A stretch of 64,000 nucleotides of DNA from Azolla caroliniana. Lineage: Eukaryota > Plantae > Polypodiophyta. The position numbers and the translations under genes were made by a program. The stretch is from contig JBHGNT010000016.1 in assembly GCA_043228905.1 (NCBI GenBank), positions 7,874,001 through 7,938,000 on the forward strand, in the 5' to 3' direction. Within the stretch, counting starts at the first letter, position 1. Each line of letters begins with the position of its first letter. This document shows positions 20,895 to 58,640 of the stretch, piece by piece. The notes beneath the pieces are model-generated. The model was not told where the DNA came from. It did no database searches and saw only the letters and a list, made by a program, of their open reading frames with translations.

Positions 20895-21726
20895 CTTTGA
20901 ACATTCTAACTTCTTATGATAATATACTAAAAGTGGCTAGCAAGACAAGTGGGACTTTATATTCTTAGAGTCATTAGGCTTTCACTCTAATAATGTAAAA
21001 CAACACAAAAATACAATGTATATGCACACTAAGAGGGTGCATCTTTTGACTTCTTTGACATGTGCTAACCATGATCCTTTACTTTATAAAGCACCAAAAA
21101 AGTTTTGGAATGAATTTGTTTCAAAGGACAGTGAATGGTGACTTTAATGTTTGACTATTATCCTCTCATGTTGGACAATAAATTCACTCCACATGCAGTA
21201 GTAGCCTTTTGAGGTCATTTCTCCTCCTCCAACTTTGGATGGTCCATTAAAAGATCCAAGAACAATGACTACAACTTATAATATGTAGAATATTTTTTAG
21301 TGAGTATGAACAAGCACCAACCACCCCCACACAAATGAACAATAGCAAGATGCAATTTCACTATGGTTAGTGGGGTAAGCATCTTATAAACAAATGCCTA
21401 TTGTATAGGAGAGAACCTAAGAATGTATTCTAAGGCTATGCCATTAACTACATCGAGTGAGTTATATTTGGAATTGGAGCAAATGACATATAACTCTCTT
21501 TGAAACAAACTTTTATTGTAATCATGCTCAAGTGTTTTGCAAAACATATGCACTTTTTTTCTCTTTGCATCATTGTCTTCTTTTCAAGCATCCATGTGTC
21601 AAATCCTCTCATATTTATGAAAATATAGCACGATATTAAAGCATTAAGGTTCTATACTTTATCTTAACTAAGCCTAGGAGAGAATTTGTTGTTGATTCAT
21701 TGTTTTGTCAACTAGTAGTAGGATGA

Positions 21727-22060
21727 CACAACAGTATAGTAGATGCTCTGATGGATAAGTATCAAAATACGGCAGATGCATTGTCATTACAATATAGTGG
21801 ATCTGCTACTCATCATATTGTTTTTCTTGAGAAGTATGGAAGGGAAACCCTCTCTTTGGGAGCTGGATTCTGATTATTCCTTACACGTTGGGAGTAATGG
21901 TGATGATTCACATGCATCAGATGCTTGGTATAAGAAGTTGCTTTCAAGTGTGGACTTAACTAAGCACTTCTTTTTAGCTGCACATACCCAATTATGCAAA
22001 GCTTACAAAGGAATCTGCTTGTTGATGAGGCTGAGAGGGTGCCATATGAAAACATGTTTG
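21727..22060 (+). pseudogene. SAC/FIG4-like phosphoinositide phosphatase retrocopy, left part (non-colinear exon order)
   Basis: SIVDALMDKYQNTADALSLQYSGSATHHIVF, EGKPSLWELDSDYSLHV, then YKKLLSSVDLTKHFF-SCTYPIMQSLQRN..VPYENMF; preceded by TSD aactagtagtaggatga (21710-21726). Confidence 0.82.
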
Positions 22061-22640
22061 TCTTTGGATAATTGGTCCCTCTGGATGGGATGAGTTGGAG
22101 AGCCGAATCGGATGAAGGTCAGCTGAGAGCCGAAAGTTGAAAGTCGATTAGGCCATATCCGATTAGAGGCTACATTTGTAAATAGCCCATGCCGTGTATG
22201 AGTATAAATACAGCTACGACAATCATTATGTAATGTGATGTACAGAGTTGTTGTGATAGTGTATTGAGAGTGACCTCACAAAGAGAGTGTAGGTAACCGT
22301 CTGTAAGACGAATATGAGCTCAAGGTTGTTGCCTAGAGTCTCTTGTATACCTCTTTACATAGTTATTCTGTTTGGAGTCTATGGGCTCCCGTGGTTTTTC
22401 CCATTCAGGGTTTCCACGTTAATATCTCGTGTCTCTGTGTCTGTGCATTTTCTGTTTTTAGTTGTTTCGGTTATTGTCTTTTCATTGTCATCTAGAATCG
22501 GTTGTTGCCGGTCTCATATTCTCAACAAATTGGTATTAGAGCTGAGGTTCATAAACTTGAAGCTGTAGAAAATATGGACGAATTCTTCGAGGGGATGTTC
22601 AAGCTAACTAGTGTCGTGAATGTGTGTGTGTGTGTGTGTG

Positions 22641-22734
<94 letters not shown>

Positions 22735-23744
22735 CAGGAAATGGAAATGATATTATATTATGAGAAAACAAGGTTACAAAGAGTAGGCTAAGGGCTAAAG
22801 ACTGGTGTTGAACCGAATGAGTTGTGATAAATGTATAGACACCTATTTATAGATCCTTATGAAGTATTCTAGAATGTTCTAGAATATTTTAGATATCTAA
22901 GATAATAAATATAATCATGAAATATTCAAGAATGTTCTAGAATAATCTAGAATGTTCTAGAATAATCTAGAATGTTCTAGAATATTCCAAATATCTTGTA
23001 ATAAATAAAATTATAATTATTATAACTACACATCATATATGTTAATTTAATGGTTAAAGGTTCAACACACAGACCAAGAAGTTGTGGGTTCGACTCCTAA
23101 TAAGCCAAAATGTATGTCTTCATGATATTATCTCCCCTCTTCAACGACGACTTCCATGAGTCAGAATACAAGATTTTGGACTTGGATTATGGGGATATTT
23201 GTTGTGAAATGCAACAACCATGTCGGAAGCATTAGCAAGATGCTCGGCAAGCTCCCATGTTCGATCATTAGGTGTATAACCTAACCAATCAACCAAATAA
23301 TATAGTTTGTTGCGGATGATCTTGGAGTCGAGAATGGCAACAACCTCACATTCAGAGCCATCAGAAACTTTGATTGGAGGTGGGGGTGGTGTAAGACGAC
23401 CCGAAATAGAGCTTGGTGTGTAGGGCTCCAAAAGTGAGACATGGAAGACTGGGTGAAGATGCATATCAGGAGGAAGATCAAGGTGAAATGTCACATCATT
23501 GATCCTACTACAAATCACATATGGACTGAAACGTGGATAATCTAGTTTGTAGCAAGGTTGGGTGGTTTTAATGCTACCTTATAAGAACCATACTCGATCG
23601 CCTACTTGAAACGTAGTCGATGAATCACACCGATGACGGTCAACAACCTTCTTGTGAGTGGTTTGAGCATCACCTAAATGGTGCAAAAGTATATCCTGAA
23701 CTTCTTGGAGTTGGGTGAGCCAATCTTTAGCAGCCAGGTTTGTC

Positions 23745-24806
23745 GAGAAGGAGCATCGACTGTAAGTCGAAAAATGAGGGCGTATTCTCCCTTGTACAAA
23801 CCGCAATCCGGAAAGCTCCAAACTTGGACGCCAGGCCTCCAAGACAGACATGCACCATCCGTCTTCCTCTACGGTGACGTTAATAGAGGCAAGCGCGTCA
23901 CAGATCCCTTTGATCCGGGCTGTGTAATCTGCCACCGACATGTTCTTCTGTCGAACATTGCTCAACTCCTGTCTGAGTTGCAGCTTCCGGGCAGTGGTGC
24001 TTGCGACGAAGACCTTTTTCAAGTTTCCCCAAGCATCCTTCGGTGTCTTGGCGTCACGGATATGGCTGAGCAACTGGTCACCGACACTGGACGCGAAGCA
24101 GTACATCACCATGCTTGCCGCCTGTTCCCACACTAGGAAGTCCTTGTGTGTCGTCTCCGGTGCTGAATCGTTCACTCCGTCGACATAACTCCAGTAGCCA
24201 TGCCCAAGCAAGTACTGGTGCATCTTGTATGACCAAGATGCATAGTTGGTTTTGTCGAGCTTCTCCACCGGGAGCGACGTAGCCATACCTCTGTCCATTT
24301 CTCCTTTTGTGTCTGTTTTCCGATCTGTTAGGGTTTCCTTCACAAGCGTAGATGTCTGCAACAGAGGTTCTCAACCCACGCGCTCTAATACCATGTGAAA
24401 GATAGCTTGCGGAAGCGTTAGAAAGAACAATACACAAAGAGAGAGAGAGAGAGAGAGAGTAGGACACACTATTTTTCAAAATTATATGAATACTCTGTGT
24501 TCTCTCTCTTCTGTATCTATAACGCACTCATCAACGTTATTTATACAAGTCCACACGGGACTGTTAGAAGTACGGTGTACTTCAATGCTCACACGAGCGT
24601 CTAACACTAACTACGAGACTATAACTGCCTAGTAGTCTAACCTATACTAGGCTTCATGTTACGGATTGGATCCGTCATACCGGCTCCCCAGCTCACCGGT
24701 CCTTACTGCTTACCGGCTCGGTTGCTCACCGGCATACCGATTCATCTCACTTACCAGCTCAGGCTTATTCAGCTGATCCGGCTCCGGTTGAGCTTGCCGC
24801 TCAACA
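23745..24806 (-). mobile_element. Truncated Copia C: LTR (24394-24806), PBS and 5' gag, fused by deletion to the T1 integrase remnant
   Basis: LTR TGTTGA...TTTCACA, PBS tggtattagagcg (24381-24393), gag LPVEKLDKTNYASWSYKMHQYL...AWGNLKKVF. Confidence 0.85.
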
Positions 24807-27698
24807 ATTTGGAATGATCCCAAAGGATCGTTTAAGAGTTTAACGTCGTCAACATTTGTTGAATCAAGTACCCTCATGATTTTACACTAGTTGGTGCTAT
24901 CACTACCATTGGATTGTTTGGGTATGAGTATGGTGGTGGAAATATTGAACTTTCACAATGTATAGTTTGCATCAAGCATTCCCTTTGGCATTACTAGCAA
25001 TTGTGACCTCCCCTTGTTATGAGTGCCACTTCCACTTTCAATGGTTTCCATCTTCTAATAGACCAATACATAGTTGTCGCCTTTACAACTTTCTCCTCCA
25101 CAACTATTCTAGATGGCTAATGATGAACCTCACTCTAAATGTCATGTGAACTTGGACTAATAACAAATAAAGCACATATCATAACAAAGAACATATCAAT
25201 ACATATCATTTACATACCCATATAGTTGTCCAAATGTAATAAATGAAATTAAGATTAGAATATAGATCAAAAGAGGGCATCTTAATGCAAAAACATTGTG
25301 AAGTAGTATTGCTAAGAGGTGATTCAAAATGCAAAGTTAACTAGTTATTCACATATGCATAATTTGTGGGAGCGTTGATCTCAATTGGTACTCTCATAAA
25401 ATATGTCACACACTTTCCTTTGTTTTTAATTTGATTTAGTTTTGTTCAACCATAACACAATCTAGAATACAAGCAACAATCCGCCCAATGCTTTTGTGTC
25501 ATGCTAACAAGGATTCTCATCTAGGCAACTTAGTTTATTGGTGGATTTACATTGAGATCAAACGAGCATGAGCTCTAGCCTAAAGCTAACTAGTTGGAGC
25601 AAAGTTATAAAGGGAAAGACTCGGAAATTGGCTTGAGTTCCTCTTTATACTCCCAAAGCCCCCTCCCCAGTTCTCGTTGTTTTTTGGAATGCACCCAGGT
25701 CAAAGGCAAATGAGAAGTGATGGGGGTGCTTGCACCTTCACATGCTTCTATAGGACCTCCATTTTCTTTATGGGCACATGCCAAAGTTGGGGGACGATGC
25801 CAATATGGAATGCTCCTCTTGAGTTTTTGAGTAGATCAAGATATCATCCAAGTAAACTATGATGAAGATATCGAGGAAGTCCGAAAAAACTATCATTCGC
25901 CATATGTTGGAAAACTACTGGTGCATTCGCAAGATCAAATGGCATCATTGTATACTCAAAATGGCCATAGCGAGTGCGGAATGCAGTCTTCCATTAATCC
26001 ACGGGATGAATTCGAACAATGTTGTAGGCACCTCGAAGATATTACTTCGTGAAATATTTTGCTCCATTGAGGTGTTCCAGAAGGCTTGAGATCAATGGTA
26101 GAGTATATCGGTTTCGAATAGTCACTTTATTCAAACCCTGATAATCCATGACCATACGAAGCGTACCATCTTTCTTCTTAACGAAAAAGATGGGTGCACC
26201 TGTAAGATATCTTGAACGTTGGATAAAACCATTTGCTAGGTTCTCATCAATATATTCTCGAAGAACCTCTAACTCCGTGGGCGAAAGGTTATAAATTGGC
26301 CCCCATGGAGGCTCTTTTCCTAGGCTACAAATCAATCGGGCAATCATATGGTTGATGTGCTAGTTGTCTATTAGTCGTCACCTTATTGAACATATCAGAG
26401 AATTCTATATACTTCTTTGGTAGTTGGACCCCCAACTCTTGTGAGCTAGATAAAGGAGTTGTTAAAACCGCAAACACAAACATGTCTTCTGTCCTTCCAT
26501 TCTCACGTAACTAATGTATAGAGATTGTTGAAATTGTGTGGGATCCTAGATCCTTTGTTGCAGTCTCACGAGACTCGGACTGTACCGTGACCTTTTCAAT
26601 AGTTCTTTTTCTCCAATAAATAGTTGGGTTATGTGGACAATTCACGGCGATATGTCCTGAACCACCAGAATATAGGCATAGGTGATGTGCTCGACATCGT
26701 TATTTCTCAGCATCTGATAAGGGCCCTTGACGTTGTGTTGACTCTATTTCCATCGGAGTGGGACCATCCCTCCTAACGGGTCTGGAAACTTATGGCGGTG
26801 TTGCGACTATTGAAGCGTACGTTTGTTCCGATCGGTAGCGTAACATTTGTTGCCGTTCAGAACTTCGCTCAAATAGGCGATTATCACATCGCACAGCTCG
26901 ACTAATTGCCTCAGTAAGAGACTTCGGATCTTCGTGGAAAGTAAGAAGAAGATCTTTGACATCGTTACGCAAACCCTAACGGCATTGATCCATTAAGGTT
27001 GCCTCATCCCAAGGGATGTCACATGCCAAGAGACGGAAATCGGTTGCATAAGCTAAAGCGGGATGATCTCCTTGTCGGAGTCTTCGAATCTTGTTTATTG
27101 TCATCCTAGTGCTATCGATGTCTCCAAACTAGCTTGAAACTCCTTAACGAATGCCTCGAAATCCTCCAACAACGGTGATTTCTTCTCAAGAAGTGGTGCA
27201 AACCATGCTAACGTTGTACCGCTTACCAAGGTTCCTACTAATCCCACACGAGCAACATCAGTTTGGTACCGATTGGGATGTAACTGAATCACCAAACGGA
27301 CTTGATTCAAGAAACCTCGAAACAGAGATCTTGTACCATCAACTTGGAAGGGAGGCTAATCTTTGGTTCCCTTGGGGAGTTTTGAACTCCCACGGTTTGT
27401 TCTCGTAATGCTAATATAGTAGCCTCGAGTTGATGAACCCATTGTGCTAACTCCTCATATTGGTGAGCTTTCTCGGTACTCACGTGTTGTAGATCCCCGA
27501 GCAGTCTTTGATTTTCTTGCTCTAATGCCACAAACTTAGTCGTGAGCATGTCGAGCTCAGAAAGGACACACATATATTCTTGCTTGCGGAGAGACTCCAT
27601 AACTGAGAGGGAAAAAGAAAGAAGGAAAAAGAAGAAAGCTTGCCAGGGTTATTGGAAGAGGAAAAAGAAATATTCAGTTCAAACCGTCGTGACTCGTG

Positions 27699-27755
<57 letters not shown>

Positions 27756-29376
27756 ACGTCTTCTACGACCAAAATTGGCCCATGAGACAAATGGTTTACA
27801 ACAAAAAATGGGATATTTACCCATTCATCGAAAGTAAAAAATAAAAATAAAAATAGAGTTTTAAGCTAAATAGTTCTAGTAAAATAAAATAACAAACATG
27901 TTCTACAATGAAAATGATGTTATACTAGGCCTAATTTCATTTCCATCCAAGTCTCTCGAAGAGAAGCGGGAGGTCAAAGGGTTTTGATGTGGATGTGGCA
28001 TGTGGCCCCAATGTAAAAGGTACCCCAACCATAGCTTCTAGTCAACGTTGCTCACGTTCCCTTATCTTCTTAATCCTTTCTACTCTGTGTCGACTTGTTT
28101 TGAAGCCCAAGATCCGAGGGCATTTGGTTGTTCTTTGCATTTCGGCTTCCTCAAGAGAGAGGCTGAGTGGCGTAAGTGTATCCACATTCATCGTCTCCCC
28201 TTGTTCCTGAAAAATTACATTGGTTACAAGTTGATGAATAGTAAAAGGGTTATGGTTTGTAATTTATTCTCCCTATGTTGTTTTAGCTCTAAGATATACC
28301 TACCTAGTCTCTTTACATCCGGGGTATCTAATAGTTTGGAGAGGGTGGGAGAGGGTCCTAATATGTCTTGGTATTCCACTCGTATCTCGGCATAAGTTGG
28401 GCACTTGCATGTGAAGTGATACTCATCCTCTATCTCTATGTGGCACAACCTACATAGCCTTTCCTCCCTAGGGACTCTATTAGCCCGCCCATTCTCAATC
28501 TCAAGTTGGTGAGATGATATCCTAAGTTGTCCAATGGTCACCCTTCGTGCATTTGATAAGAACGTATCTAGATATCTTGGTCGTGTAATAAAACCTAACT
28601 GAGAGAATTGCAAGAAGTGTTCCTTATAGTACAATATTTTAGATGGGAGTGGCTCTCGTGGGGTGATCCATTTATATTGAGTGTAAATTTTCCATATTTC
28701 TTGGCATATCACTTTATTATGGTCTTCATGAGATATTAGAGTCTGGTTAGTCCCATGGTTGTACTTAAGGGGGGGTAAGTTATTAATGTCTATGCTGTTT
28801 GCAAGTAACCAACTCACCACAGTGCTATACCAAGAGCTAGTGTCTCCAGACGCATGTAGGGATCGAGATTCCTCAAAGGGTCAACATGATATCCTATATT
28901 GTGGTTGGCTATGTATCCGATGAATAAAAACTACCACTTGAAACAATGCTTCTACTAACATCAGGGCATATTGAACTCTGCTTTAATAATGTCATGTGGT
29001 ATTGTCGATTTGCTTCAGAGTTGACGTGATAACATCGTCACCAAAGGTCTCTCTAATTGCGTCCACATGAAAGATGGTAGACCTAGTGTCATAACTAGAC
29101 TCGAACCCATAACCTTTTGTTACACGGGTCGAGACTTTACCATTAGGTTATGAGTTGTAATTTGAAGGATATTATTTTCATTTAGGTTTTATTAGGAAAT
29201 TGATGTATATTCCAGATTTCTCTGGAACATTCTAGAAACTTCAGGAGTATTCCTGAAGACACTATAAAAGGAGGCACAAGGCATTAGTTTGAACCAAATC
29301 GGTTCTACGCCAGTCTTAAGCCTTCTAACTACTGTTGTATATCTTCCGTCATATAATACATATATCTTTCGCATCA

Positions 29377-29420
<44 letters not shown>

Positions 29421-29641
29421 ACTCATTCCTTCTCTCAAAGTTCGACACCTCTCATAGTACTAATCCTTCTCTGTCTTAGTACTATTCCCCAACAATAGTA
29501 CTAATCCTTCTTTTAGTACTAATTCCTTCTCTGCCTTAATAGAGTTCCTGACAGTTTGAACCGATTTTTCCTACTAGTCTCCCTCTTCCTTCTGTCTCTC
29601 TCCTTTCCTACTAGTCTCTTATTTCCCTTTTCCTTCATCCC

Positions 29642-30811
29642 ATGACCACCGTTAGCGCTGAAGAGTATCAATCCGTTTTCTCGGAATTTCAATGCTTGAA
29701 AGAGAAGTTTCATGCTTTGGAACAAGAAAATCAACGCTTGTTGGGGGATCTTCAGCAAATTTCCTTAGAAAAGCAGCAAACGCAACAACAGCATGGGGAA
29801 CTTGCGTTACGCGTGCAACAACTCGAAGCAACCATCGTAGCAATGCAACAACAAGGGCACGGAGCACAAGGGATTCATAAAGAACCCAAGATTGGCCTTC
29901 CCACGAAGTTCGATGGAACGCGATCGCAGTTTAGAGGGTTTCTTAACCAGGTACGGTTAGTTATTCAAATGCATCCGTCCCGATATCCCACCGATGCATC
30001 ACGAGTGGGTTTAGTAGGCACGTTGTTAACTGGCTCAGCATTAGCATGGTTCGCTCCGCTACTAGAAAAGGAATCTCCAGTACTAAATAATTTTGAAGAA
30101 TTCATAAGTGAGTTTAAAGCATGTTTTGGAGATATTGACAACATAAGGACTGCAATCAACAAAATCCGGCGATTACGCCAAGGTGACCGTCCAGCCTCCG
30201 CATATGCTGCAGATTTCCGCCTACTCGCCGCCGATATCCCCTGGGATGATCAAGCATTGATGGAGCAGTTCCGCTATGGTCTACGCAACGATGTCAAGGA
30301 TTTACTCTTGACTTTCCCTGAAGAGCCAAAATCATTAACAGAAGCAATCAGTCGAGCGGTCAGATGTGACAACCGCCTCTTCGAGCGACGTTCGGAACGA
30401 CAATTTCAGATGCCGAGGGCAAGATCCGAGCCTACCTATGCCTCAATGGTAGCGAAACCTTTTCAAAGGGAGTCACATAATGCGCCTCCAGTAAGTACTC
30501 CAACTCCAATGGAAATTGACACTACACGTCGTCGTGGGCCGCTATCGGAGGAGGAAAAGCAACGACGCCGAACAAACCGATTATGCCTTTATTGCGGTGG
30601 ACCAGGGCATATCGCGATAAACTGTCCCCATAGACCAAGAAGGCAGGTAAACCAAGTCATTGTTAGTTCTGACTATACTAAACCCGAGTCTATGTCAGTA
30701 GGAATCTCTGATAATCCTCATAGTCATAATAGTCCTAATAGTACTAATAGCCCGAATCTCGCAAACAAATTTGATGTCCTTAGCCAATTAGAAGAAGAGT
30801 TAAACGACTAA
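29642..30811 (+). CDS. gag: T2 Gag (coiled coil, retrotransposon gag domain, CCHC knuckle)
   Basis: 389 aa; PTKFDG, LTGSALAWF, PTPMEID, CLYCGGPGHIAINC. Confidence 0.93.
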   Translation: MTTVSAEEYQSVFSEFQCLKEKFHALEQENQRLLGDLQQISLEKQQTQQQHGELALRVQQLEATIVAMQQQGHGAQGIHKEPKIGLPTKFDGTRSQFRGFLNQVRLVIQMHPSRYPTDASRVGLVGTLLTGSALAWFAPLLEKESPVLNNFEEFISEFKACFGDIDNIRTAINKIRRLRQGDRPASAYAADFRLLAADIPWDDQALMEQFRYGLRNDVKDLLLTFPEEPKSLTEAISRAVRCDNRLFERRSERQFQMPRARSEPTYASMVAKPFQRESHNAPPVSTPTPMEIDTTRRRGPLSEEEKQRRRTNRLCLYCGGPGHIAINCPHRPRRQVNQVIVSSDYTKPESMSVGISDNPHSHNSPNSTNSPNLANKFDVLSQLEEELND

Positions 30812-30850
30812 GTCCAGCCAAAATAGGAGCCGTTTGGTTGGACAGCCCTA
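30799..30850 (+). promoter_or_regulatory. Putative -1 ribosomal frameshift signal
   Basis: G_TTA_AAC (30799-30805) in gag frame, 6-nt spacer, 11-bp stem gtccagccaaa/tttggttggac; the -1 frame is open into pol. Confidence 0.7.
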
Positions 30851-33800
30851 GATCTGTGCAGCCCATTAGTGGTTCCATTCCCTCTAAGCAAGTTAGTGAT
30901 GTGTTCGTAGTCCAAGTAGCAGTTAGTACTAAAAGTACCCCTCCAGTACATACCTTAGCCCTTCTAGATTCCGGAGCTAATTCTTGCTTCATGGATAGGA
31001 ATTTTGCCCGAGCTCATCAGATATCTCTCAGAAAGCTCCCATGTCCAGCCTCAGTAGTAGTCATTGATGGTCGTCCCATTGCTTCTGGTAATATCATAGA
31101 AGAGTCGGAACCCGTTAATATTGTCCTAGATAACTTAACATGTGTAGTATCATTTAATATTATTAGTATTCCAGAACATCCCATAGTTTTAGGATTACCA
31201 TGGTTCGAGTTACATGACCCAGACATAGATTGGAGGACAAGGGAAATCCGGTTGCGACAAACCCAAGGATCTACCCAGAAGGTTGCAACCATTACGCTAC
31301 GACAGTTGCGTGAGGAAGGGCGCAAGGAGGAAATGTTTCTCTTTGCAATATCAGTACAACCCTCCAGCACCACCAAAGAGGAGTCCACCGTTCAACTTCC
31401 CGAGAAGTATCGTCAGTATGCTGATGTGTTCGATAAAGTACAAGCCAACACACTTCCTCATCATCGGCCGTACGACTGCGCCATCGACTTACAACCGGGA
31501 AAAGAGCCGCCATGGGGGCCGATCTACAATTTGTCACCAACCGAGCTAGAAGTCCTTCGAGCCTATATAGAGGAGAATTTGGAGAACGGTTTCATTCGGC
31601 ATTCGAAATCTCCAGCCGGCGCACCCATTTTCTTCGTCAAGAAAAAAGATGGCTCGCTTCGACTCGTTGTAGATTACCGTGGCTTGAATAAGGTCACAGT
31701 AAGAAATAGGTATGCTCTTCCCCTTATCTCAAGTCTTTTAGAACGGATCAACGGTGCCAGGTTCTTCACGAAGATCGACTTACGAGGAGCCTATAACCTC
31801 GTACGGATCCGACCAGGAGATGAATGGAAGACCGCGTTTCGCACCAGATATGGGCACTTCGAGTATACGGTCATGCCGTTCGGACTCACTAATGCGCCGG
31901 CAGTCTTCCAGCACATGGCGAATGATATATTTCGAGACCTCTTGGATGATTTTTTGATCATCTATTTGGATGATCTACTGGTTTATTCAAAGACCCAAGA
32001 AGAACATGATTCTCATGTACTATTAGTACTAAAACGACTTCGAGAACATGGTCTGTATGCAAAGTTAGAGAAATGTAGTTTCGGGTGCAACCAAGTGGAG
32101 TTTCTCGGCTATGTCATCTCCTCAGAAGGCATATCTATGGACCCAGCCAAGGTCAAAATGGTGATAGAATGGCACACTCCGCGTTCGGTGCGGGATGTGC
32201 AATGCTTCCTAGGCTTTGCAAATTTCTACCGGAAGTTCATACAAAATTACTCAAAAATTGTGCTGCCTCTCACACAGCTCACCAGGAAGGGACAATCATT
32301 CATTTGGTCTAAAGAGACGGACATGGCTTTCGAGAGTCTTAAGAAGGCGTTTACATCAGCTCCAATTTTAGGTCATGTGGATCCGGAAAAACCATTCATT
32401 ATCGAAGCTGATGCATCGGATTTCGCATTGGGGAGCATTCTGTCACAACAGGGTAACGACGAGAAGCTACATCCTGTGGCTTTCCACTCCCGTAAGTTTG
32501 ACGCCGCCGAAATCAACTACGAAATTCATGATAAAGAGTTATTAGCAATAGTTGATTCTTTTATGCAATGGAGGCATTTCCTGGAGGGATCTCCTCATCA
32601 GGTCACTGTATTCAGTGACCACAAGAACCTTGCCTACTTTCAAGATGCTCGTGTACTGAATCGACGTCAAGCTCGGTGGGCCCATTTCCTCACACGCTTC
32701 GACTTCAAAATTACATATCGTCCGGGGAAGCACCAAGGGAAGGCAGATGCATTATCACGGCGTTCGTATCTAACACCACGTCCCGGTGAGCCAGCTTTCG
32801 ATAACCAGAAGCAGGTAATCTTGGGTCCAGCACGACTGCAAGCAGCACAGATCTTTGACATGCCCGTGGATTCCGACATTACCAATACTATACGTGAGGA
32901 CTTGAAGACTGACGCTTTCGCCCAAGCTATACTAGCACAAATTGACCCCTCTCGAGCGTCATGTTCACAATCACAATCACCAGGTACGGATTATCGGCAA
33001 TTCAAATACTGTGATGGATTCCTCTTCTTTAAAGAACTTTTGTATGTTCCTAATGGTTCTTGCCGCCTTCGAGTAGTACAAAACTGCCATGACACATATA
33101 CAGCAGGACATTTTGGTAGTACTAAAACATTAGATTTAGTACAACGATCATTCTGGTGGCCCCGTATGCGACAATTTGTCGAAGATTTTGTTCGGACTTG
33201 CGATACATGCTGCAGAGCGAAAATGCCAAGACATCATCCATATGGTTTATTAGAACCATTACCAATTCCAAGCAAGCCATGGCAATCCATTGCTCTTGAC
33301 TTCATTACAGATCTTCCAGTCTCTAAGGGATTCAGTGCGATTCTCACAGTGGTGGATCGATATACGAAGATGGCTCATTTCTTACCATGTACTAAAGAAA
33401 TATCTAGTGAAGACACCGCCGAAATTGTCATGCGGGAAGTATGTCGGCATCATGGACTCCCTGATAATATCATCAGCGATCGTGGACCCCAGTTTGTGTC
33501 AAAATTCTGGAAGCACCTTTTTAAAATGCTGAAGGTCACTTGTAACCTCTCCTCCGGCTACCACCCACAAACCGACGGTCAAGCCGAACGAACAAATCAA
33601 ACACTGGAGCAGTATCTGCGGTGCTTTCTCAACTATCATCAGAATGACTGGGCATATATTCTTCCGTTCGCCGAATTTGCCTATAATAACGCTATCCACG
33701 CATCGACTAAAGTCACGCCATTCTACGCTTATACGGGATATCATCCCCGGTGGTGTGTCCTTGAAACCCCAGAAGTGTCCACAAATCCTTGCGCGGAGGA

Positions 33801-47285: not shown

Positions 47286-47321
<36 letters not shown>

Positions 47322-47332
47322 GGAAATGATAT

Positions 47333-50300
47333 TATTATGGAGCACTGGAAAGAGAGAGAAAGAATTCTAGACAAGAGGTACTTAGTTCAATAAGAAGAAA
47401 GGAGCATTTACTATATTAAAGAGAAGATATTACATCGGGGGTATCCCCTTAATTTCCCAAAAACCAGCCCCCCTTCTCTATGCACACAACTTCCTTAAAT
47501 ACCCATGGACTCATTTACTTCACCACCAATTTCTCTAACTACTTGACCATTAATTCCTCTAGTTACTTGACCACTAATTTCTCTAGTTGATCCCTCCTCT
47601 AATTTCTCTACTTCTAACTACTCCATAACATAACACTCTCCCATGAGGTGCAGAGTTTCACCCTCAAAACTAAAACACTAGTACAATAACATGACTTGCT
47701 AAGTCCATAAGTAAATGAAAGGAATGAAGGACAATGGCAAAGGTGGTCTTACCATACTAATATAGTAGGCAATGTCTAAAACCTTGCCATTGTAGCACTA
47801 ATTAGAGCTAGGGTACCTGAACAAGAATGAGGGATCCAAACGAAACAAACTTTCTTCAGAGATCCATGTGGCTTCCGAAAGTGGTCGCCCTTTCCACTTG
47901 ATCAAAAATTTCGTGTTTCCATTGTGCACTTGTTTTAAGATTGCTTCAGGTTTTTCAGCTTCCTCACTTAGATTAGTCTTCTGACTCCAATGTTTATCTG
48001 CATGAAATCTTTTAAGCAAACTTACATGAAATGTATCATGCACTTTGACAGAAATAGGTAATTTGAGCTTGTAAGTGACTCCATTAAAACTTTGTAGCAC
48101 TTCATATGGCCCATAATAACGATGGTTAAATTTAGGTGAGAGTCCTCCAGGTAAAGGCCAATGAACGGCACTAACGAGGACCAAGTCGCCTTTGAAAAAT
48201 TCGATGTGTTGCCGTTTTTTGTTAGCTGTCTGAACCATTCGTTCCTTTGATTCTTGTAATCCTTGTTGTGCAACCCGCATTGTTGCTTGCCAATCTGCTA
48301 GAAAAAGATCGACATCAGGCTCTTTAATTTTATCTCGAACAGCATGAGAGACCAAAGCCAATGGAGTAAGAACTTGCTTCCCTGTAGCTACTTCAAAAGG
48401 AGAAAAACCAGTGGCAGAATGTTTAGAGGAGTTATAACAAAATTCCAGCATATCGATATGATCCGTCCAATCTTTTTGATCCGCCTGCACATAACAACGA
48501 ATGTAGTCTTCAAGACTCTGATTTACCCTTTCAGTTTGGCCATCAGTTTGGGGATGAGCCGTCGAAGACATTCGAAGTTGTGTGTCCAGCAATTTGAATA
48601 GTTCTTGCCAAAATCGACTAGTAAAACACGGATCCCTATCTGATACGATAGCCGCAGGCATGCCATGATATTTAAAGATATGTTTGAAGAACAATTTGGC
48701 TACTTGGAGAGCTGTGAGGGGTGGTTTAGTTGGTACAAAGTGAGCTTGTTTAGAGAAATAGTCGATGACCACCATGATCGCATTATAACCTCTTGACATG
48801 GGCAAGTCCACTATGAAATCCATACTCACCACATCCCATGGTTGAGCGGGTATTGGCATGGGTTGTAGCAATCCAAATGGTCGTCCACGCCGAGCTTTGA
48901 CTTGTTGGCATGTCACACAGGATTGGATGTAGTCTTTTACATCCAACTCCATATGTGGCTACAAAAAATATTGCCAGATATTGGTGAGTGTCCGATGAAT
49001 ACCACCATGCCCTGCCATCTTACAATCATGTGCTTCTTGCAAAATTAGTGCCTTAATTTCCTTTATATTAGGTACAAACCACTTACCATGTACCATTAAT
49101 AGACCTTGTTGCATTTTAAGTGACCCATGGGCCGCACGTTGCATTTCCATATCGGAAATCAATTGTTGCGTGTAAGGATCATGTTATTGAGCTGTTCAAA
49201 TGTCTTGTAGTAAAGAAGAATTAGAGATTACCGAAATGGTACAAGCACGAGGCATTCGACTTAAAACATCTGGCATAGTATTAAGAGCACCACTTTTATG
49301 GTTGATGCAGAAATCAAATTCTGCCAAAAAATCTTGCCAACGAGCTGGTTTAGGGGACAACTTCAGTTGGGACTGAAAATACTGCAAGGATATGTTATCA
49401 GTGAATACTTTAGTAAACTTATCTTGGACATAATGACGCCATTTGCGTAAGGCATAGACGATGGCAAGCATTTCTTTTTCATGAGTAGGCCACCTAACTT
49501 CAATACATGAAAATTTCTTGGATTCATAAGCAACTGGATGTCCATCCTGTATCAACACAGCACCATAAGCCACATAAGAAGCATTTGTATGGATTTCAAA
49601 TGGTTTAGTAAAATCTGGTAACTTAAGCACTGGTTGGGAACACACTGCTTCTTTGAGTTTTTCGAAAGCATCTTGTTCTAGTGTTGTCCATTTAAAACTT
49701 GTTTTAGCTTTAGTTAGGTTAGTTAGGGGGGTTGCAATCGCACTAAAATGCTTGATGAATTTACACACATATTGCACGAAACCTACAAATTGTTGGAATT
49801 CTATGGTTTTAGTCGGGATTGGCTATCTTCGAACAACATCCACCTTGCTTGTATCCATGCGAAGGCCATGTTTCCCTACCCGGAAACCTAAGAAGTTAAT
49901 ATCTTGTACTGCAAACTCACATTTTTTGGGGTTAGCATACAATTTGTTTTCTCGCAGTATATGTAACACCTTCTTAACATGTAACACGTGCTCATCCAAT
50001 GTTTTGCTATAGATGAGCAAATCATCTATGTATACGATGACAAACTCATCAAGGAAAGCACGAAATAGATCATTGCCCAAGTGGCTAAATGTTCCTAGTG
50101 CACCAGTGAGCCCAAAACTCATAACCAGCCATTCATAACTGCCATACCTTGTCCAAAAAGCTGTTTTCTCAATGTCACCTTCAACAACTCGGATTTGGTG
50201 GTATCCCGACCTCAAGTTGATGCGAGTAAAAAATTATGCCCTTGCCAATTGATCTAGTAAATCGTCAATGACTGGCAATGGATATTTACCTTTGATAGTT

Positions 50301-53006
50301 ATCTTGTTGAGTGCTCAATAGTCCATACACATTCACATTGTTCCATCCTTTTTTGCAACAAATATAATGGGTGCCCCGTATGGCGAATTGCTCGGGCAGA
50401 TGAAACCAGATGTCTCCAGCTTGGCCAATGCTTCTTTAATTCTGCTACTTGAGTTGCATTCAACTTGTATGGAGCTTTAGCTGGTGGTGTGCTTCCCGGT
50501 AGTATGTTGATTTTGTGATCAATGGCTCTTTTAGGGGGTAGTCCAGGAGGTAACCTGGCTGTTAGCACATCATTAAATTTAGTTATTAGGTGTTGAATTA
50601 TTGGATTACTTTTGTGTCCTTCCAATGTTGTATTTGCTTGATGGTGGACAATGGTTGTACATAAAAATAATTGCCCTCCTTTTTTAAGTGAATGATTAGC
50701 CACTTTGGCGCTACATAATGCTAAAGGAGGACTGGATTGCTTACTTGATTGCACTTGCTTATTTGTGGAGCGATGAAGACTTACCACCACCCCATTGTGT
50801 CCATCCAAATTGTCCAATAATACTTTGTCTATTCTCCTTCCGAAATGTGCGATAAGATACTTATCTGCCCAATCCAATCCTAATATGACATCAAATCCTG
50901 TCATTGGAACTACTAGAAAATTTACCTTTCCTTTCCATGTTTCCGCTTCCATAGGAATATCCAACGCCAGGGATCCAATATTGGTTGAGCCTTGCACAAA
51001 GCTTATGGATATGTCCCTTAATGGCATAGGTTTCAATCCGAATTTAGTGATGCACTCGGGAGTGATAAAGTTATGCGTTGCTCCACTATCAACCATAGCA
51101 TTGCAAGCATGACCATTGATCTTGGTTGCCAAGTACAAATGATCAATGTGAGAGACACCCACAACAAAACAAAGGGGGTTTACCTTTGTTGCTCCTGCCG
51201 TGACCTCCATTAACCCATCCTCCACCTCATCAAGAATGTTGAGAGGTTCATAGTTGTTGTTGTCCAATCCCTCCTCAAGATCCCTAACATTGGCTTGGGC
51301 CACCACGACTTTTGGTGATTTCCTTCGGGGACATTCATATGCTAAGTGTGGACTGTCACATTCAAAACAACCCCTTCGAAGGTTTGGGAGCCTTTCCCCA
51401 TTTGATGAGGATGCCATGCTTTTTCGTGCTCCATTACTACCCCCCCAATTATCTTGGGACATAGCAAGTGATCTGTTGAAGACTCTTTGCCCTTGACTAC
51501 TAAAATCGCGTCTCATAGGGAAGTTGACGGACGATTTCATAGCTCGAAATGGCTGTTGAAGCTCTTCAAAATCACCAATTCGTTCAGCTAGTTGAACCGC
51601 CATCTCCAAATTCATCGGTTGTTGCTTTTCAATCTCCATCCTGATTTTGGATCTTAAACCAAACAAAAAACCATGAATTTTAGTCACTTCATGAAAATGC
51701 GGGAGTTGAAGCATGAGTTGTCTATACTTGTCGACATAAGTCGACAAACTCCCCTCTCCTTGCCTTAATTTCCTCCATGCATCCATCAAACGAGTTGTTT
51801 CATTTGGTGGGATAAAATATTGCCGCATTCGAGTTGTGAAGGCTTGCCATCCCATGAACTGGTATGTGTTCTCTCCGACCAGATACCAATTTAAGGCCGT
51901 CCCTTCTAAAAAGTTTGTTGCAGATATGGTCCACTGGTCTTGAGATATACCACTTTGCCGAAGAAAGTGTTCTACCTCATGAACCCACCTATTCAAGGCT
52001 AGTGATTTTCGTTCGCCTCAATACGTCCGAGGTTTGATTGGTGTGAACCTTCCGCCTCCCCCTTCTATGCCCGTATTTGCATTTTTGAGAAGGAGATCCA
52101 CTAAAATTTCTAATTGATCCTTTGGTGGGGCTTGGTTGTGGCCAACATCCGTCTCCACGAGTCTTCTAGTTGTCTCTTCTCGTGACTCTTGCCCTTCTAC
52201 TTCCAACGCTTCATGGAGAGATCCAAATTCGATCCCTGCTGCTTCTTCCAAATCATGTGAGGTTTGCCCTCTTGGTTGTTCCATTTGATCAATACTATGC
52301 TCTAATATTTCTCTTGATTCAAATTCATCCACAATTTCCATATTTCCCCTTCGTCGAAGAGGGCATGGTTCCCTACCCATTCTCCTTCTATTATTCAACA
52401 TATTCTCAGAAATTTCTTACCTGAGGGTATGGTCGGTCAAGTAGGTATGTTGTCGGTCGACACTTCTTATTCGATTAGCCGTATTTCTTGTGGCTATGAT
52501 AGGATGTTCAACTCAGCTGTTGCAGACAAAAAAAATAGAAATACTAATAATTTCAGCCACCAATGTAGCCTCCACTCGATTTCTAACCACCACTTCCACT
52601 CTTGGCTGCCACAATTCGAGTTGTTGTTTGCTTCTCTCTTGGTTGCTAGATCTTTCCACGCATCTACACCTTCTCGGTGATATGCAGAACCTGCTCTGAT
52701 ACCAAGTATTACGGAGCACTGGAAAGAGAGAGAAAGAATTCTAGACAAGAGGTACTTAGTTCAATAAGAAGAAAGGAGCATTTACTATATTAAAGAGAAG
52801 ATATTACATTGGGGGTATCCCCCTAATTTCCCAAAAACCAGCCCCCCTTCTCTATGCACACAACTTCCTTAAATACCCCTAGACTCAACTACTTCACCAC
52901 CAATTTCTCTAACTACTTGACCATTAATTCCTCTAGTTACTTGACCACTAATTTCTCTAGTTGATCCCGCCTCTAATTTCTCTACTTTTTACTCCATAAC
53001 ATAACA
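47333..53006 (-). mobile_element. Chromoviral Ty3/Gypsy element with tRNA-iMet PBS (decayed), inserted in the T1 5' LTR
   Basis: ~300-bp LTRs 47333-47635 and 52707-53006, TSD gatat/aatat, PBS tggtatcagagc. Gag (LEGTALNW, CFECDSPHLAYEC), MVDSGA, YIDD, RNase H, integrase and C-terminal chromodomain (FLIKWKG..ATW) in broken ORFs 47798-52401. Confidence 0.93.
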
Positions 53007-53365
53007 AATATTATATTATGAGAAAACAAGGTTACAAAGAGTAGGCTAAGGGCTAAAAACTGGTGTTGAACCGAATGAGTTGTGATGAATGTATAGGCAC
53101 CTATTTATAGATCCTTATGGAGTATTCTAGAATGTTCTAGAATATTTTAGATATCTAAGATAATAAATATAATCATGAAATATTCAAGAATGTTCTAGAA
53201 TAATCTAGAATGTTCTAGAATATTCCAAATATCTTGTACTAACTAAAAATACAATTATTATAACTACACATCATATATGCTATTACAATGGTTAAAGGTT
53301 CAACACACAGACCAAGAAGTTGTGGGTTCGACTCTTGATAAGCCAAAATGTATGTCTTTATGACA

Positions 53366-56300
53366 ACTGGCTCCAACTACTCAGTTTGGAAGTCGCGGAT
53401 GAGAGACATGCTCACGTGCAAAGATCTATGGTTGCCAATGCAGTATGACAAAGAAAAACCAGGCAAGATCGATGCATCAACTTGGGAAGTCAACTACATA
53501 CACAAGGTGTTTTATAGACACAAATCTATACAACAACTTCAATGAAGAGACAGAAGCATGTATTTAGGAAGATAGTGAGATTGAGATATCGGGATGGCTC
53601 AAGCATGGCTGAGCACCTGAACGCCTTCCAAGGAGTCATAAATCATACCACTTCTCTAGAAGTACCTCTCGCCAACGTGGTATTGGCCTTGTTGTTGTTG
53701 GGATCCCTTCCGGACAGCTTGGAGATGCTCATGGTGACCTTGGGTAACGTGGGACCACAAGAGAAGTAATTGTCTCTGGAGATGGTGAAGTCGAGCTTGC
53801 TGAATGAAGAAGCTCGTCGGATGGAGGGATAGTCCATCTCCGATCATAAAACCCTAGTCACAGAAGGTGACTCCAATAGAGGAAGGGGTAGGTAGAGAAG
53901 TCTGCAAAATAGGGACAAGTCTAGACCAAGGTCGAAGTCGAAGGGAAGGCTCACGTGCTTCTAGTATGGGAAGTTGGGACACTTCCAAAAGAATTATCGG
54001 CATTACTAGAAGGAAAAAGGGGGGGGAGTTGATGGTGTTGAGCCGAAAAAGATTTGGGACAACAAGACCACCTTAGCCATCGTCGCGAGTGAGGAGGAGC
54101 TATTGTTCATTAGTGAATAGAACGAAGTAAACCTTGTTGGTGAAGAATTGACATGGGTGGTCGATTCTAGTGCGACATTTCACCTGATCCCCAACAAAGA
54201 ATGCTTCTCATCCTACACGGCCAGAGATTATGGCTACGTGAGGATGGGAAATGATGGTGCATGCAAGATCATCAGAATCAGAAATGTATGTTTGCTAACC
54301 TAAACAGGCTATAGGATGATGCTGAAATACGTGTGCCATGTTCCGGATATCAGATTGAATCTGATATCGGCCGGATGGCTCAATAATGAGGTTATAGTAG
54401 TAACTTCCAAAGTGGCATGTGGAATTTCTGCAAAGGAAGCTTGATAGTGGCTCGAGCTTACAAGAAAAATACATTATATGTGATGCATGCATGGTTGTGC
54501 CAGAACAAGGTAAATGTGGCAGCCAACACAGCTGGCAAGCTATGGCATAAGAGGCTATGCCACACGAGTTAACAGGGCATGTAGATGGTAGTAAAAAGAG
54601 AACTCCTATCAGAGGTGAAGAATGTGCATCTGGACAAATGTGTCGACTGCTTGGCTGACAAACAAAATAGGGCCGCCTTTCGCCCTAGGCCTCCGATGAG
54701 GAGGAAGAATCCTCTAGAACTCGTGCATAGAGATGTATGCTATGTTGATGCGAAGTCATATGTTCAATGCACAATATTTTGTGACATTCATATATGACTA
54801 TAACTTAAAGTTGTGGGCCTCTGTGCTGAAGACAAAGGACCAAGTGTTATCCGTCTTCAAAGAGTTCCATGCAAGAGCGGAAAGGGAATCCAGACGAAAG
54901 TTGAAGGCGGTCCTTATAGACAATGGAGGGGAGTACAAAGGGCAATTTGAAGAATACTACCAATCTCAAGGTATCCGGCAGGAATATACAGTGCCGAAGA
55001 CTCTAGAACTAAATGGTATGGCCGAAAGGATGAACCGGATCGTAATGGAAAGGTTCCGATATATGTTGGTGCATGCTAAGTTGCCGAAAACCTTTTGAGC
55101 TGAGGCATTGATGATGACGATGTTCATAATAAACATGTGTCCCTCAGTTCCCTTAGGTGGTGATAGCCCACAAAGTGTGTGGACGGGCAAGGATGTGTCA
55201 TACAGGCATCTGAGGGTGTTTGGTTGCCTATCATATGTGCATGTTGCCAAGGACCAGAGAGGAAAATTGGATCCTAAAAGCCGGCCATGTATTTTCTTGG
55301 GGTACGGAGAAGATGAATTCGGCTATCGGCTGTGTGACCTGATTGACAAGAAGGTCATCAAGAGCCGGGACATAGTCTTCATGGAAGAAAAGACTATTGC
55401 CGATTGGGAGACGGAGAAGTTGGGATCATCCTCCCAACTAACCGGAAGAGAACAATCGCATGAGATACACGCCCAACCGGCCGAAACCCGGATGTCAACT
55501 GAAGAACAAAGCGGGCAGGTCGGATCCGGACAGGGAGCTGGATCGCCGGAAGGCATTCGAAGGCCGGATCCAGACAAGGAGCCACATCGGCCGGAAGCCA
55601 GATCTGAACAGGGATCCGAATCAGATTTGGATGAGGAGCCGGCAAAAGAGAATGATGCAGAGCCGACTGATGAGAACCAAGGTAGGAGATACCCCTTGAG
55701 AAACAAAAGGGGGGCCCGTAGTTTTTCGGAAAAAGAATATGTTCTCTTAACTGATGAGGGGGAGCCGAAAAGCTTCAAGGAAGCTAGGAGAGATGCCCAC
55801 AACAAAGAATGGTTACATGCCATGCAAGATGAGATGGATTCCTTGCATGAGAACTACACGTATGAATTGACTGAGTTGCAGCAAGGTAAGACAGCACTCG
55901 GGAATAAGTGGGTCTACAAATTGAAGCCGAGAGAAGGCAAGAATCCACCCAAATTCAAATCCCACATTGTGGTAAAGGGCTTCTAGCATAAAAAGGGTGT
56001 AGATTTCGACGAAATATTTGTCCCGGTAGTGAAAATGGCATCCATATGGACGGTGTTGAGCATTGCAGCCAACATGGACTTAGAAGTCGAACAACTGGAT
56101 GTCAAAACAATTTTCCTGCATGGAGTTTTGGAGGAAGAAATCTATATGCAGCAGCTGGAAGGATTTGTAGGGAATGGTAACGAAAACCTGGTATGTCGGT
56201 TGAGGAAGCACCTGTATGGGCTGACGCAAGGCCCCGACAATGGTACCAGAAATTCGAATCCTTCATGATAGATCATAGCTTCAACAAGGCACATGCCGAC

Positions 56301-57330
56301 TACTGCGTTTTTCTAAAGAAAATGACTAAGGAAACTTCCTTGTCCTCCTGTTGTATGTTGACGACATGTTGATTGTTGGACAAGACCTGAAGAAGATTGC
56401 AAGCTTGAAAAAGGCCTTGAGCAAGTCATTTTCAATGAAGGATATGGGTTCGACGAAGCAGATTTTGGGGATGCACATTGTCCAAGACTGAACGAAGAAG
56501 TTTTTGTGGCTGTCACAAGAGAAAATGTGACAAAGGTGTTCTAGAGATTCAACATGTAGAATCCGAAGCCAGTCAGCTTGACATTGCCAACAAACTGTAA
56601 GCTGAGCGGAAATCAATGTCCGAAGATGAAGGTGAAGAAAGCTGAGATGAACAAGATCCCCTATGCCTCATCAATCGAAAGCCTGATGTATGCAATGGTG
56701 TGCACAAGGCCAGACATTGCCTATGTTGCCAGAGTGGTCAGCCGATTCATGAGCAATCCCGACAAGGAACATTGGGCCGTGGTCAAGTGGATACTTTGAT
56801 ACCTGAGAGGCACCTCAAGTGTATGCCTCAGATACGGCTCAATTAACCCTGTGCTGGAAGGGTTCATGGACTTCGACATGTCAGATGATGAAGACACCAA
56901 CTAGTCCACGTTTGGATACGTGATGACTTATGCAGGGGGAACCATCTCTTGGCAGTCGAGGTTGCAAAAGGTTGTGGCTCTATCGACCACACGTGCTGAG
57001 TATATGGCTGTTGTCGAAGGCAACAAGGAAATCATATGGATGAGAGACTTCATTGGTGAGTTAGGAATAAGTTAGGAACAATTCTGATTGCACTATGACA
57101 ATCAAAGTACCATCCACCTTGCTAAGAGTGCCGCCTACCATGCGAGAACTAAGCATGTCCAATGGAGATACCATCGGCTTAGAGAGAGGGTAGAAGAAGG
57201 GGATTTCACCCTGGTAAAGATCCATACAAACGACAATGGATTGGACATGTTGACCAAGGTGTTGCCTACATACAAGATGAATGCATGCCAACATCGAGTA
57301 GGTATGTTGAATTACCCCATCCCAGAGTGA
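53366..57330 (+). pseudogene. Copia D gag-pol, degenerate
   Basis: WVVDS, DNGGEY, AERMNR, KLDPKSRPCIFLGY, LYVDDMLI, CTRPDIAY and HARTKH motifs, with stops and frameshifts. Confidence 0.9.
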
Positions 57331-57780
57331 AGGGGAAGTTTCTTGGGATAATTGGTCCCTCCAAATGGGATGAGTTGGAGAGTCGGATCACTTGAGAGCC
57401 GAAAGCCGATTAGAGGCTACATTTGTAAATAGCCCATATCGTGTATGAGTATAAATACATCTAGGGCAATCATTATGTGATGTGATATACAGAGTTGTTG
57501 TGATAGTGTATTGAGAGTGAGCTCACAGAGAGAGTGCGGGTAATCGTCTGTAAGATAAAGATGAGCTCAAGGTTGTTGCCTTGAGTCTCTTGTATACCTC
57601 TTTATATAGTTATTTTGTTTGGAGTTTGTGGGCTCCCGTGGTTTTTCCCATTCAAGGTTTCCACGTTAATATCTTGTGTCTATGTGTCTATCCATTTTCT
57701 GTTTTCAATTGTTTCGGTTATTGTCTTTCTCATTGTCGTCTGGGACCAGTTGTGGTCGGTCTCATATTCTCAACACTTTG

Positions 57781-57859
57781 TTTGGAATTACTTTGTATGT
57801 TGTACCTGATATGCCTTTTTAAAAACTAATGGAATGATATTTTGTTTTGAAAAAAAAAA
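57781..57859 (+). pseudogene. SAC retrocopy, right part with poly(A) tail
   Basis: Removing Copia D restores ATG TTT GTT TGG AAT TAC TTT (MFVWNYF). A10 tail at 57850-57859 runs into the second TSD copy aactagtagtaggatga (57858-57874). Confidence 0.75.
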
Positions 57860-58640
57860 CTAGTAGTAGGATGATAAATGTGGGTGACTTTTTGCACATT
57901 GATGGAGTTTGCTTCAATAAGTTGGTTCATTGTTCTATTAGATATACTCACTTATTTGCCAACATAGGATGTCAATCCTCATTGGATGATGCTTGAACAT
58001 TTAGAAATCTTGAAAAATCCTCTTGCAACAAAAAGATCATTAGGCATTGCAAGTTGTATTATCAAAATCTTAGTCCATACGTTGTCGTGATGTGGTGTGC
58101 TCATGGGAAGAAATTACTCAAGCATGGCGAGAAGGTCACATGCCAAGAGGAGGCACAAGATAACAAAAAGATATACCTCAAGAAATTACTCTTGAAACAA
58201 AATGGGCAAGGGGGAGGCAATATGAGTGAATGGAGATGCTCATCAACATTTTGCTCTCTCTAGGCTCCCTAGGAGGATAAGTATTTTCTCTAGCTTGAGA
58301 AAATACACGAATGTGCTCATGTGAGTACACAACAAAAAATGTACACTTTCTTGTTTGAGCTTGGAAGCACTTATGCTTTTCTTGCGTGAATTTGGAGACA
58401 AGGTTCGACAAAGTGTTCCAATGCACAAGACATTGGATACAAACCCACAACCTACACTCTTGTCACATGCTCATAAGGCCCACAAATTGGATCAAGAAGC
58501 TCGTTGTCGTGATGTGGTGTGCCGAGTGTGGGAAAAACGCATAAACAAGGGCAAAAGAGTGCAGTGGAAGTGCAGGCAAAAAGCTAGAGAAAGGAGGGAG
58601 GTAGGTGCCAAGGAGGAGAAAATGTGTGAGTGAGAGAGAG

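Follow-up and report, generated by a model that had tools for sequence, protein, structure and literature searches.

A window of 64,000 nucleotides from the fern Azolla caroliniana (GenBank assembly GCA_043228905.1, contig JBHGNT010000016.1, positions 7,874,001 to 7,938,000 of the forward strand; position 1 is its first letter) contains a short insert derived from SAC1, a gene of the SAC1/FIG4 phosphatase family, in which late exons precede an early one. An earlier note had proposed this insert as a candidate one-off retrocopy of a back-spliced circular RNA (circRNA). The feature is real and larger than first noted: it belongs to a fern family, linked to long interspersed nuclear elements (LINEs), that carries a splice-exact scrambled SAC1 junction. 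The insert itself is a 5′-truncated copy of this many-copy retroposon family with spliced, scrambled SAC1 sequence. The joint of exon 12 to exon 4 was likely made by back-splicing, and we consider it, on balance, probable that an L1-clade LINE took up a back-spliced SAC1 RNA in its 3′ region and went on to amplify the captured sequence.

The Insert and Its Target Site

The insert is bounded on the forward strand by two exact copies of a 17-bp target-site duplication (TSD), at 21710..21726 and 57858..57874; the 17-mer occurs at these two places only in the 64 kb, and the match stops at its ends without extension in either direction. When the Copia retrotransposon that splits it is removed, the insert measures 411 bp (334 bp at 21727-22060 and 77 bp, ending in an A-run, at 57781-57857), in close agreement with the ~410 bp estimated previously. 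The run of ten A's (A10) lies at 57850..57859, its last two A's being part of the second TSD copy. Intron 10 is absent, exon 10 being joined straight to exon 11. A TSD within the range of 7-20 bp and a 3′ A-tract are traits of sequences mobilized by LINEs through target-primed reverse transcription, and, together with the loss of intron 10, they identify the insert as a LINE-type insertion of a spliced template, as had been proposed. Among the loose contig ends listed, none corresponded to an empty site; the filled 5′ joint was present in three sequencing runs.

The insert encodes the blocks ALMD..QY.GS..VF, GKPSLWELDSDY and YKKLL..NMFV as originally described, with DAW continuing in frame into YKKLL; a 1-nt deletion further on shifts the frame. 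In the fern SAC1 protein P0009, YKKLL stands at residue 161 (block 161-207), ALMD at 556 and GKP..DAW at 630-659 (DAW 657-659). The order in the insert is inverted relative to this protein, with residue 659 joined to residue 160-161. Against human FIG4 (7k1w_F) the blocks are likewise inverted, though the match is weak (E 0.016), with residues 604-629 ahead of residues 152-183 in the query. The inverted order claimed in the earlier note is thus confirmed. A Pfam search of the insert alone in three frames gave no domain match, and no sign of function was seen in the window copy.

Related loci were obtained from short-read metagenome contigs, in which the YKKLLSSVDLT coding pattern was found at 46 loci: 30 intron-bearing SAC1 genes and 16 scrambled copies. 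Set against these, the insert reads on the forward strand as follows. Its truncated 5′ end is the 3′ part of exon 10 (21727..21819; ~residues 550-579 of P0009; tblastn, query 545-588), beyond which other copies extend further 5′. The start of exon 11 (21820..21841) follows without the intron that stands at HNT|VF in L042 and L004, and it runs up to an internal deletion of the family that is present in nine loci and not in L012. The 3′ part of exon 12 (GKP..DAW; 21842..21927) reaches the exon 12 donor, as judged by comparison with isoforms and seed-plant introns, and the scrambled junction (21927..21928) joins this donor to the exon 4 acceptor, both in phase 2. The 5′ part of exon 4 (YKKLL..NMFV; 21928..22060), with the 1-nt deletion, is 96% identical over 133 columns to the corresponding exon of L035, the likely parent. 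Beyond the Copia, the last SAC1-derived bases (FVWN; 57781..57789) stand where ~300 nt present in the longer form of L028 have been deleted; joints that skip 300-308 nt were found in three of three DNA runs. These bases are followed by a non-SAC 3′ tail (57790..57849) that matches the L028 tail at 81% and, according to depth tables and loose ends, is part of a repeat commoner than the SAC piece.

The Scrambled Junction and Its Parent Gene

Although the scrambled junction reported near 21926 exists, its exact place is 21927|21928, where the end of exon 12 meets the first base of exon 4. Exon numbers come from a seed-plant protein mapped on L042 (16 exons), the fern numbering being assumed identical. 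The junction lies on a real acceptor: an AG stands directly 5′ of the junction base in 30 of 30 intron-bearing loci (10 distinct intron ends), including L035, and in all of the remaining 16 loci the exon 12 end occupies that position. On the other side, fern isoforms and seed-plant introns, rather than fern intron DNA, argue strongly for a real donor. Among the isoforms of one Ceratopteris gene, some terminate in DAW and others in DAC, putting the exon 12 break after TG; either SLLQ or YL(K/Q)M follows DAW in Pteridium isoforms and in two Adiantum gene models; and a GT in phase 2 stands at the aligned codon of five seed-plant loci (three distinct sequences), one codon shorter. The comparison with parental exon borders that the earlier note had proposed therefore puts the junction on a late-exon donor and an early-exon acceptor, the latter directly and the former by way of isoforms and seed-plant introns. 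A random joint would meet donor and acceptor in register with a chance of 4e-5 to 2.5e-4 (at most 2.5e-3 over ten joints), and the scrambled junction is the sole backward joint in the family and the sole one with both ends on splice sites. A genomic SAC paralog that already had the scrambled order had been named as a refutation; the order is normal in 13 of 13 intron-bearing loci that have both exons, none of them fern, and the single fern-like locus among the 30 (L035) holds exon 4 only.

Used as a query, the 47-residue junction peptide matched 21 proteins of 27 candidates, comprising nine short open reading frames (ORFs), ten fern-type SAC1 proteins and two seed-plant SAC1 proteins, with Adiantum, Ceratopteris and Pteridium as the named fern sources. 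Parentage in the SAC1/FIG4 family is borne out by the SacI domain (PF02383) of the parent, P0009 matching Syja_N in Pfam at E 1.3e-83, and by the identity of the insert to L035 exon 4. That exon is 98% identical to copy L012 over 102 nt and 96% identical to the window copy, and L035 is likely, from its sequence, to be the parent or a close ortholog.

The exon 12 donor is used variously in ferns (P0009-P0013, P0015-P0019, P0152-P0154), in that exons 13-14 are skipped or the Ceratopteris gene model ends there, and this flexible use may favor back-splicing. One Pteridium SAC1 isoform is without part of exon 11. Adiantum has two SAC1 gene models.

A Family of Copies with Nested Lesions

By shared flanks, the 16 scrambled loci represent 14 sites, or 13 if L006 and L040 are the same. 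The junction is also present in 24 predicted ORFs among 154 proteins fetched, a count that overlaps with that of the loci, some ORFs being from the same contigs. In all four DNA runs, 31-105 contigs per run were found over 601 bases, along with loose ends at 21726 that extend 5′ of 21727 into further SAC1 sequence. The summed depth of the insert contigs was 27-130 times that of the flank in the four runs, a ratio that is read only as "many" and not as a copy number. The 5′ ends of the copies are staggered, from about -48 to beyond -1300 relative to the junction, and the tail is shared, a pattern of variable 5′ truncation with a common 3′ end. Of the nine loci that have a 3′ end, all except L031 are A-rich there.

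The lesions of the copies are nested in the order L035, L012, L028, window copy and majority type. L012 retains the parental T-run and has not undergone the exon 11-12 deletion. In L028 the T-run is one T shorter, and exon 4 is kept to its end and followed by a ~300-nt tail. The window copy has both the exon 11-12 deletion, common to nine loci, and the ~300-nt 3′ deletion. Most loci show an additional change in the T-run, and most of these with a 3′ end carry a second tail type. From this nesting it follows that successive source copies re-amplified one founder. Since its deletion, 1-nt frameshift and foreign tail are shared with many copies, the window insert is a later, 5′-truncated copy of a LINE-linked element that was amplified; what its poly(A) and TSD date is this later step and not the capture of SAC1 sequence. 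Exon skipping was considered for the exon 11-12 gap and rejected, both deletion ends lying within exons.

SAC sequence in the 16 loci covers residues 368-659 and 160-234 only and never includes exons 1-3 or 13-16; the absence of these outer exons is what a circle predicts, and 5′ truncation would also produce it. At the protein level only, P0144, P0145 and P0147, compared with P0105, suggest an early subfamily in which exons 10-11 are joined and the start of intron 11 is kept: P0145 and P0147 have exons 10 and 11 joined and then the same sequence as the genomic-type P0144. One predicted ORF of this set suggests a smaller exon 11-12 deletion, and exons 11 and 12 are joined in two contigs of run X2. 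In P0035 and P0036 a single frame runs from the late block to the early one, through the deletion as well as the scrambled junction, which is probably a coincidence. No run recorded as RNA contained the stretch. X12, presumed to be an RNA run, yielded a SAC1 contig in normal exon order and a tail contig but not the junction, which is no evidence either way.

A Probable LINE Carrier

The window also holds, on the reverse strand at 12092..17800 (upper coordinate approximate), a decayed L1-clade LINE, with a weakly DUF4283-like ORF1 and an ORF2 that includes reverse transcriptase (RT; RVT_1) and zf-RVT domains according to Pfam. Behind ORF2, on the same strand, tandem repeats at 11500..11930 have blastn matches from L005, L006, L007, L016, L025, L030, L037 and L040 (best E 1.7e-16). 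The 3′ region of this LINE further contains, at 11000..11221 on the reverse strand, a MAP (mitogen-activated protein) kinase gene fragment with an internal deletion of ~40 residues (Pkinase E 6.7e-18; best match MPK6, E 1.5e-22, residues 82-104 then 145-190). A weak PPR-like fragment lies at 10713..10829, also on the reverse strand (33% over 39 aa, E 0.003, to the PPR piece of L023, whose own Pfam PPR match is below the curated cutoff). The reverse-strand region 10195-17800 thus reads, in order, ORF2, tandem repeats, MAP kinase fragment, PPR-like fragment and, near 10200, an A-rich end. The region yielded no TSD and is therefore not proven to be a single insertion.

The same tandem repeats precede the SAC piece in 8 of the 16 scrambled loci, joined to it at three different SAC1 points. 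In L007, an ORF2 end lies upstream of the repeats and matches the window LINE at 62 of 83 nt, as the top of 636 windows (score 79 versus a mean of 23, sd 4.8). Cargo behind an ORF2 end and LINE 3′ repeats together is thus seen in L007, and behind the repeats in the 8 of 16, in short-read contigs for which a chimeric join is possible. In L023 (191-640) and the upstream part of L045, PPR-like coding sequence stands directly 5′ of the SAC piece instead, suggesting a second cargo in the same carrier family. On the 3′ side, depth over the tail exceeds that over the SAC part several-fold in three of three DNA runs, and the tail has other upstream partners, from which it follows that it belongs to a larger repeat family. 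The tail is that of the carrier and not of SAC1. A LINE 3′ region is strongly indicated as the carrier of the SAC piece.

When compared with ~1.1 kb of intron 4 and the end of intron 3 in L035, where the intron is incomplete, the L028 tail did not rise above shuffled sequences, and so intronic polyadenylation is not shown; nor did this tail match a PPR frame. The repeats at the head of the element (L006:2085-3080, the L007 head and window 11500-11930) have one frame that is open for 70-80 codons. Two frames gave no Pfam match, and a homolog search with one frame found 0 of 16 candidates.

Possible Origins of the Scrambled SAC1 Junction

In the proposed mechanism, reverse transcription would start on a LINE-type poly(A) tail, and the RT would then jump onto SAC1 RNA at, or no more than 2 nt from, the end of exon 4, read through the back-splice joint, and jump back onto LINE 3′ sequence. 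A start on a LINE-type tail would explain how an RNA without poly(A) could be retroposed. Capture into the 3′ region of the L1-clade LINE would have occurred once, the LINE then spreading the SAC piece; successive source copies would have gained short-homology deletions, and an old Copia would later have landed in the window copy. As template we infer either a circle or an RNA derived from one, in which splicing was perhaps incomplete. Of the back-splice origin first suggested for the insert, the splice-exact junction at both ends thus stands, and a circular rather than a linear source is likely.

Several observations weigh against this account. No circle or junction-bearing RNA was observed, and a linear trans-spliced RNA or the transcript of a rearranged gene would give an identical junction. 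The SAC part stops within 2 nt of the exon 4 end (L028 compared with L035 and with an intron-free X12 contig), a stop that a jump of the RT or splicing into a downstream exon would explain equally; the missing outer exons are weak evidence, because 5′ truncation alone would also account for them. The remaining joints in the family, about nine, are deletions that do not fall on splice sites, suggesting that RT jumps are common in it. In addition, the isoform that skips from exon 12 to exon 15 reads W|YL, and its likely microhomology of 4-5 nt with W|YK would help an RT to jump. With respect to the carrier, the whole LINE is joined to SAC sequence in none of the loci, which are 1-4 kb long. L023 and L030 share a 3′ flank and differ 5′, so that at least one of them looks chimeric, and the long-range link in L007 could likewise be an assembly join, since the contigs are short-read and one is apparently chimeric. 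The match of the tail to the 3′ end of the window LINE is not significant (score 42, shuffled maximum 46), and this 3′ end ranks first for only one of four tails, and there in a tie. Finally, a TSD was found in one of the seven other loci tested (8 bp, in L031), and a tree of the copies (15 rows), with none of its 11 inner branches supported, was not used.

The principal alternative, which we regard as possible but unlikely, is that the spliceosome made the junction in a linear RNA, either by trans-splicing of two SAC1 pre-mRNAs or by forward splicing in a genomic duplicate, tandem or circularly permuted, that placed exon 4 downstream of exon 12. LINE read-through or capture (3′ transduction) would then have taken up this RNA, and a LINE-derived last exon would have supplied the poly(A). 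Such a linear RNA explains the exact splice sites equally well and the poly(A) without a jump onto a circle; the stop of the SAC part within 2 nt of the exon 4 donor is in keeping with it, as are the retention of intron 11 in early copies that the proteins P0145 and P0147 suggest and the two Adiantum SAC1 gene models, on a record of the same length. The intron 11 remnant and the stop at the exon 4 end fit an incompletely spliced template too. The duplicate that a linear origin might call for is set against the normal order in 13 of 13 intron-bearing loci with both exons, though none of these is fern, and exons 1-3 appear in no locus; moreover, a single read-through does not explain LINE-type sequence on both sides of the SAC piece.

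The joint could also have been made without the spliceosome, if a LINE RT had jumped between two places of an ordinary SAC1 mRNA at a short shared sequence that coincided with two exon joints. Jumps or deletions are frequent in the family, and ferns do produce the exon 12-to-15 isoform (P0009-P0012, P0153), which probably has 4-5 nt in common with the first bases of exon 4; double template jumps by a LINE RT have been published (PMC2104539). Still, the scrambled junction alone among the family joints runs backward and alone has both ends on splice sites, an outcome with a chance of no more than 2.5e-3 over ten joints if homology is not conditioned on and, by rough estimate, of 1-2% if it is; we hold such a jump to be improbable. 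A single direct retrocopy of a SAC1 circRNA at the window site, as the earlier note had it, is scarcely credible. It would account for the TSD, the A-tail and the exact junction, but the exon 11-12 deletion in nine loci, the shortened T-run, the ~300-nt 3′ deletion and the foreign tail are derived lesions shared with other copies, and these refute it unless they arose independently many times. Capture of a back-spliced SAC1 RNA by an L1-clade LINE, with subsequent amplification, is thus the reading preferred here. A more general proposal, put forward tentatively and with slightly less than even confidence, is that template jumping is a routine means by which the L1-clade LINEs of ferns take copies of host RNAs into their 3′ regions, and that one lineage spread a tail-less, back-spliced SAC1 RNA to tens of sites or more.

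LTR Retrotransposons Nested in the Insert

The insert is split by an outer Copia at 22061..57775 on the forward strand, with younger Copia and Gypsy elements nested within it, as delineated by self-BLAST and by Pfam searches of ORFs. Its long terminal repeats (LTRs) lie at 22061-22527 and 57341-57775, and its 5-bp TSD at 22056-22060 and, with one mismatch, at 57776..57780 (forward strand). The outer LTRs differ by 9.2% substitutions over 434 aligned columns and five inner repeat pairs by 0.3-4.2%, suggesting that some of the nested LTR elements are recent. Both outer LTRs seem to start with TC, not the usual TG (22056-22066; 57341-57346). The inner pairs include the near-identical Copia pairs 36017/46305 and 39857/45104, as well as a chromodomain Gypsy at 29084-34833. 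An inverted repeat at 44091-44364 (128 nt, 98%, 18-nt spacer) lies inside the youngest Copia, near the end of a long ORF.

Comparison with Known Systems

If the proposed origin is true, circRNA fossils extend to plants, a fern back-splicing event can be dated, and there is a concrete retroposition route for RNAs without poly(A). LINEs are indicated as carriers of host gene fragments (SAC1, MAP kinase and PPR-like) in large fern genomes. In practical terms, circRNA calls and SAC1 gene models in these species will include false ones that arise from genomic copies of a back-splice junction. A literature search at the level of listings, covering few subscription journals, found no plant circRNA-derived pseudogene and no gene capture by a fern LINE.

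The closest precedent is mouse circRFWD2, for which 33 pseudogenes with the reversed junction were described, mostly with adenosine-poor 3′ ends and LTR-flanked, the mechanism being left open (Dong et al. 2016, PMC4897178). The SAC family resembles these copies in that a late-to-early exon junction is fixed in the genome, in many copies of one junction and in variable lengths. It differs from them, the mouse parent circle being known, in its occurrence in a plant, A-rich ends, LINE-type repeats, an ORF2 end in one locus, stepwise subfamily lesions and an unobserved parent circle. The absence of a genuine poly(A), given as typical in the mouse report (PMC4897178), is not a feature of the window copy, which has A10. 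By its sequence, the SAC element therefore behaves like a family of circRNA-derived pseudogenes without its membership being established, given the unseen parent circle and the A-run. The route by which circular RNAs lacking poly(A) enter genomes was left open in that mammalian work (PMC4897178); here, carrier sequence is kept on both sides of the SAC cargo, which makes a retroposition route testable.

Fusion of RNA to LINE sequence has other counterparts. U6/L1 chimeras reportedly join a cellular RNA to LINE sequence through the LINE RT. In Magnaporthe, WEIRD, MGL and Mg-SINE are described as bipartite or tripartite LINE chimeras produced by template jumps (Gogvadze et al. 2007, PMC2104539). 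As in these TSD-flanked chimeras, a LINE RT would have fused cellular RNA to LINE sequence in the SAC element; unlike their partners, which are non-coding RNAs or retroelements as described, the SAC cargo consists of scrambled protein-coding exons that apparently lie in a LINE 3′ region and were re-amplified as a family. SINEs (short interspersed nuclear elements) that share a LINE tail, and the recognition of plant L1 3′ ends, have been reviewed (Ohshima 2013, PMC3747384). Like the LINE-tailed SINEs treated there, the SAC element is a short, non-coding retroposon that ends in a conserved tail and poly(A) and was probably mobilized by a LINE of the L1 clade. Unlike them, it has an mRNA-derived body and, by eye and without a scan, no tRNA or 5S head.

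Capture of gene fragments is itself familiar in plants. Pack-MULE and Helitron transposons capture gene fragments. A 2026 review of plant gene capture covers Bs1, TRIM, Rider and Pack-CACTA, with LTR and DNA elements as carriers; in its accessible sections, LINEs appear only within the classification and "circRNA" nowhere (PMC13317346). The SAC family shares with these gene-capturing transposons the multiplication of host gene fragments by a mobile element and the shuffling of exons, and it departs from the LTR elements and DNA transposons described there in that its carrier is linked to a LINE.

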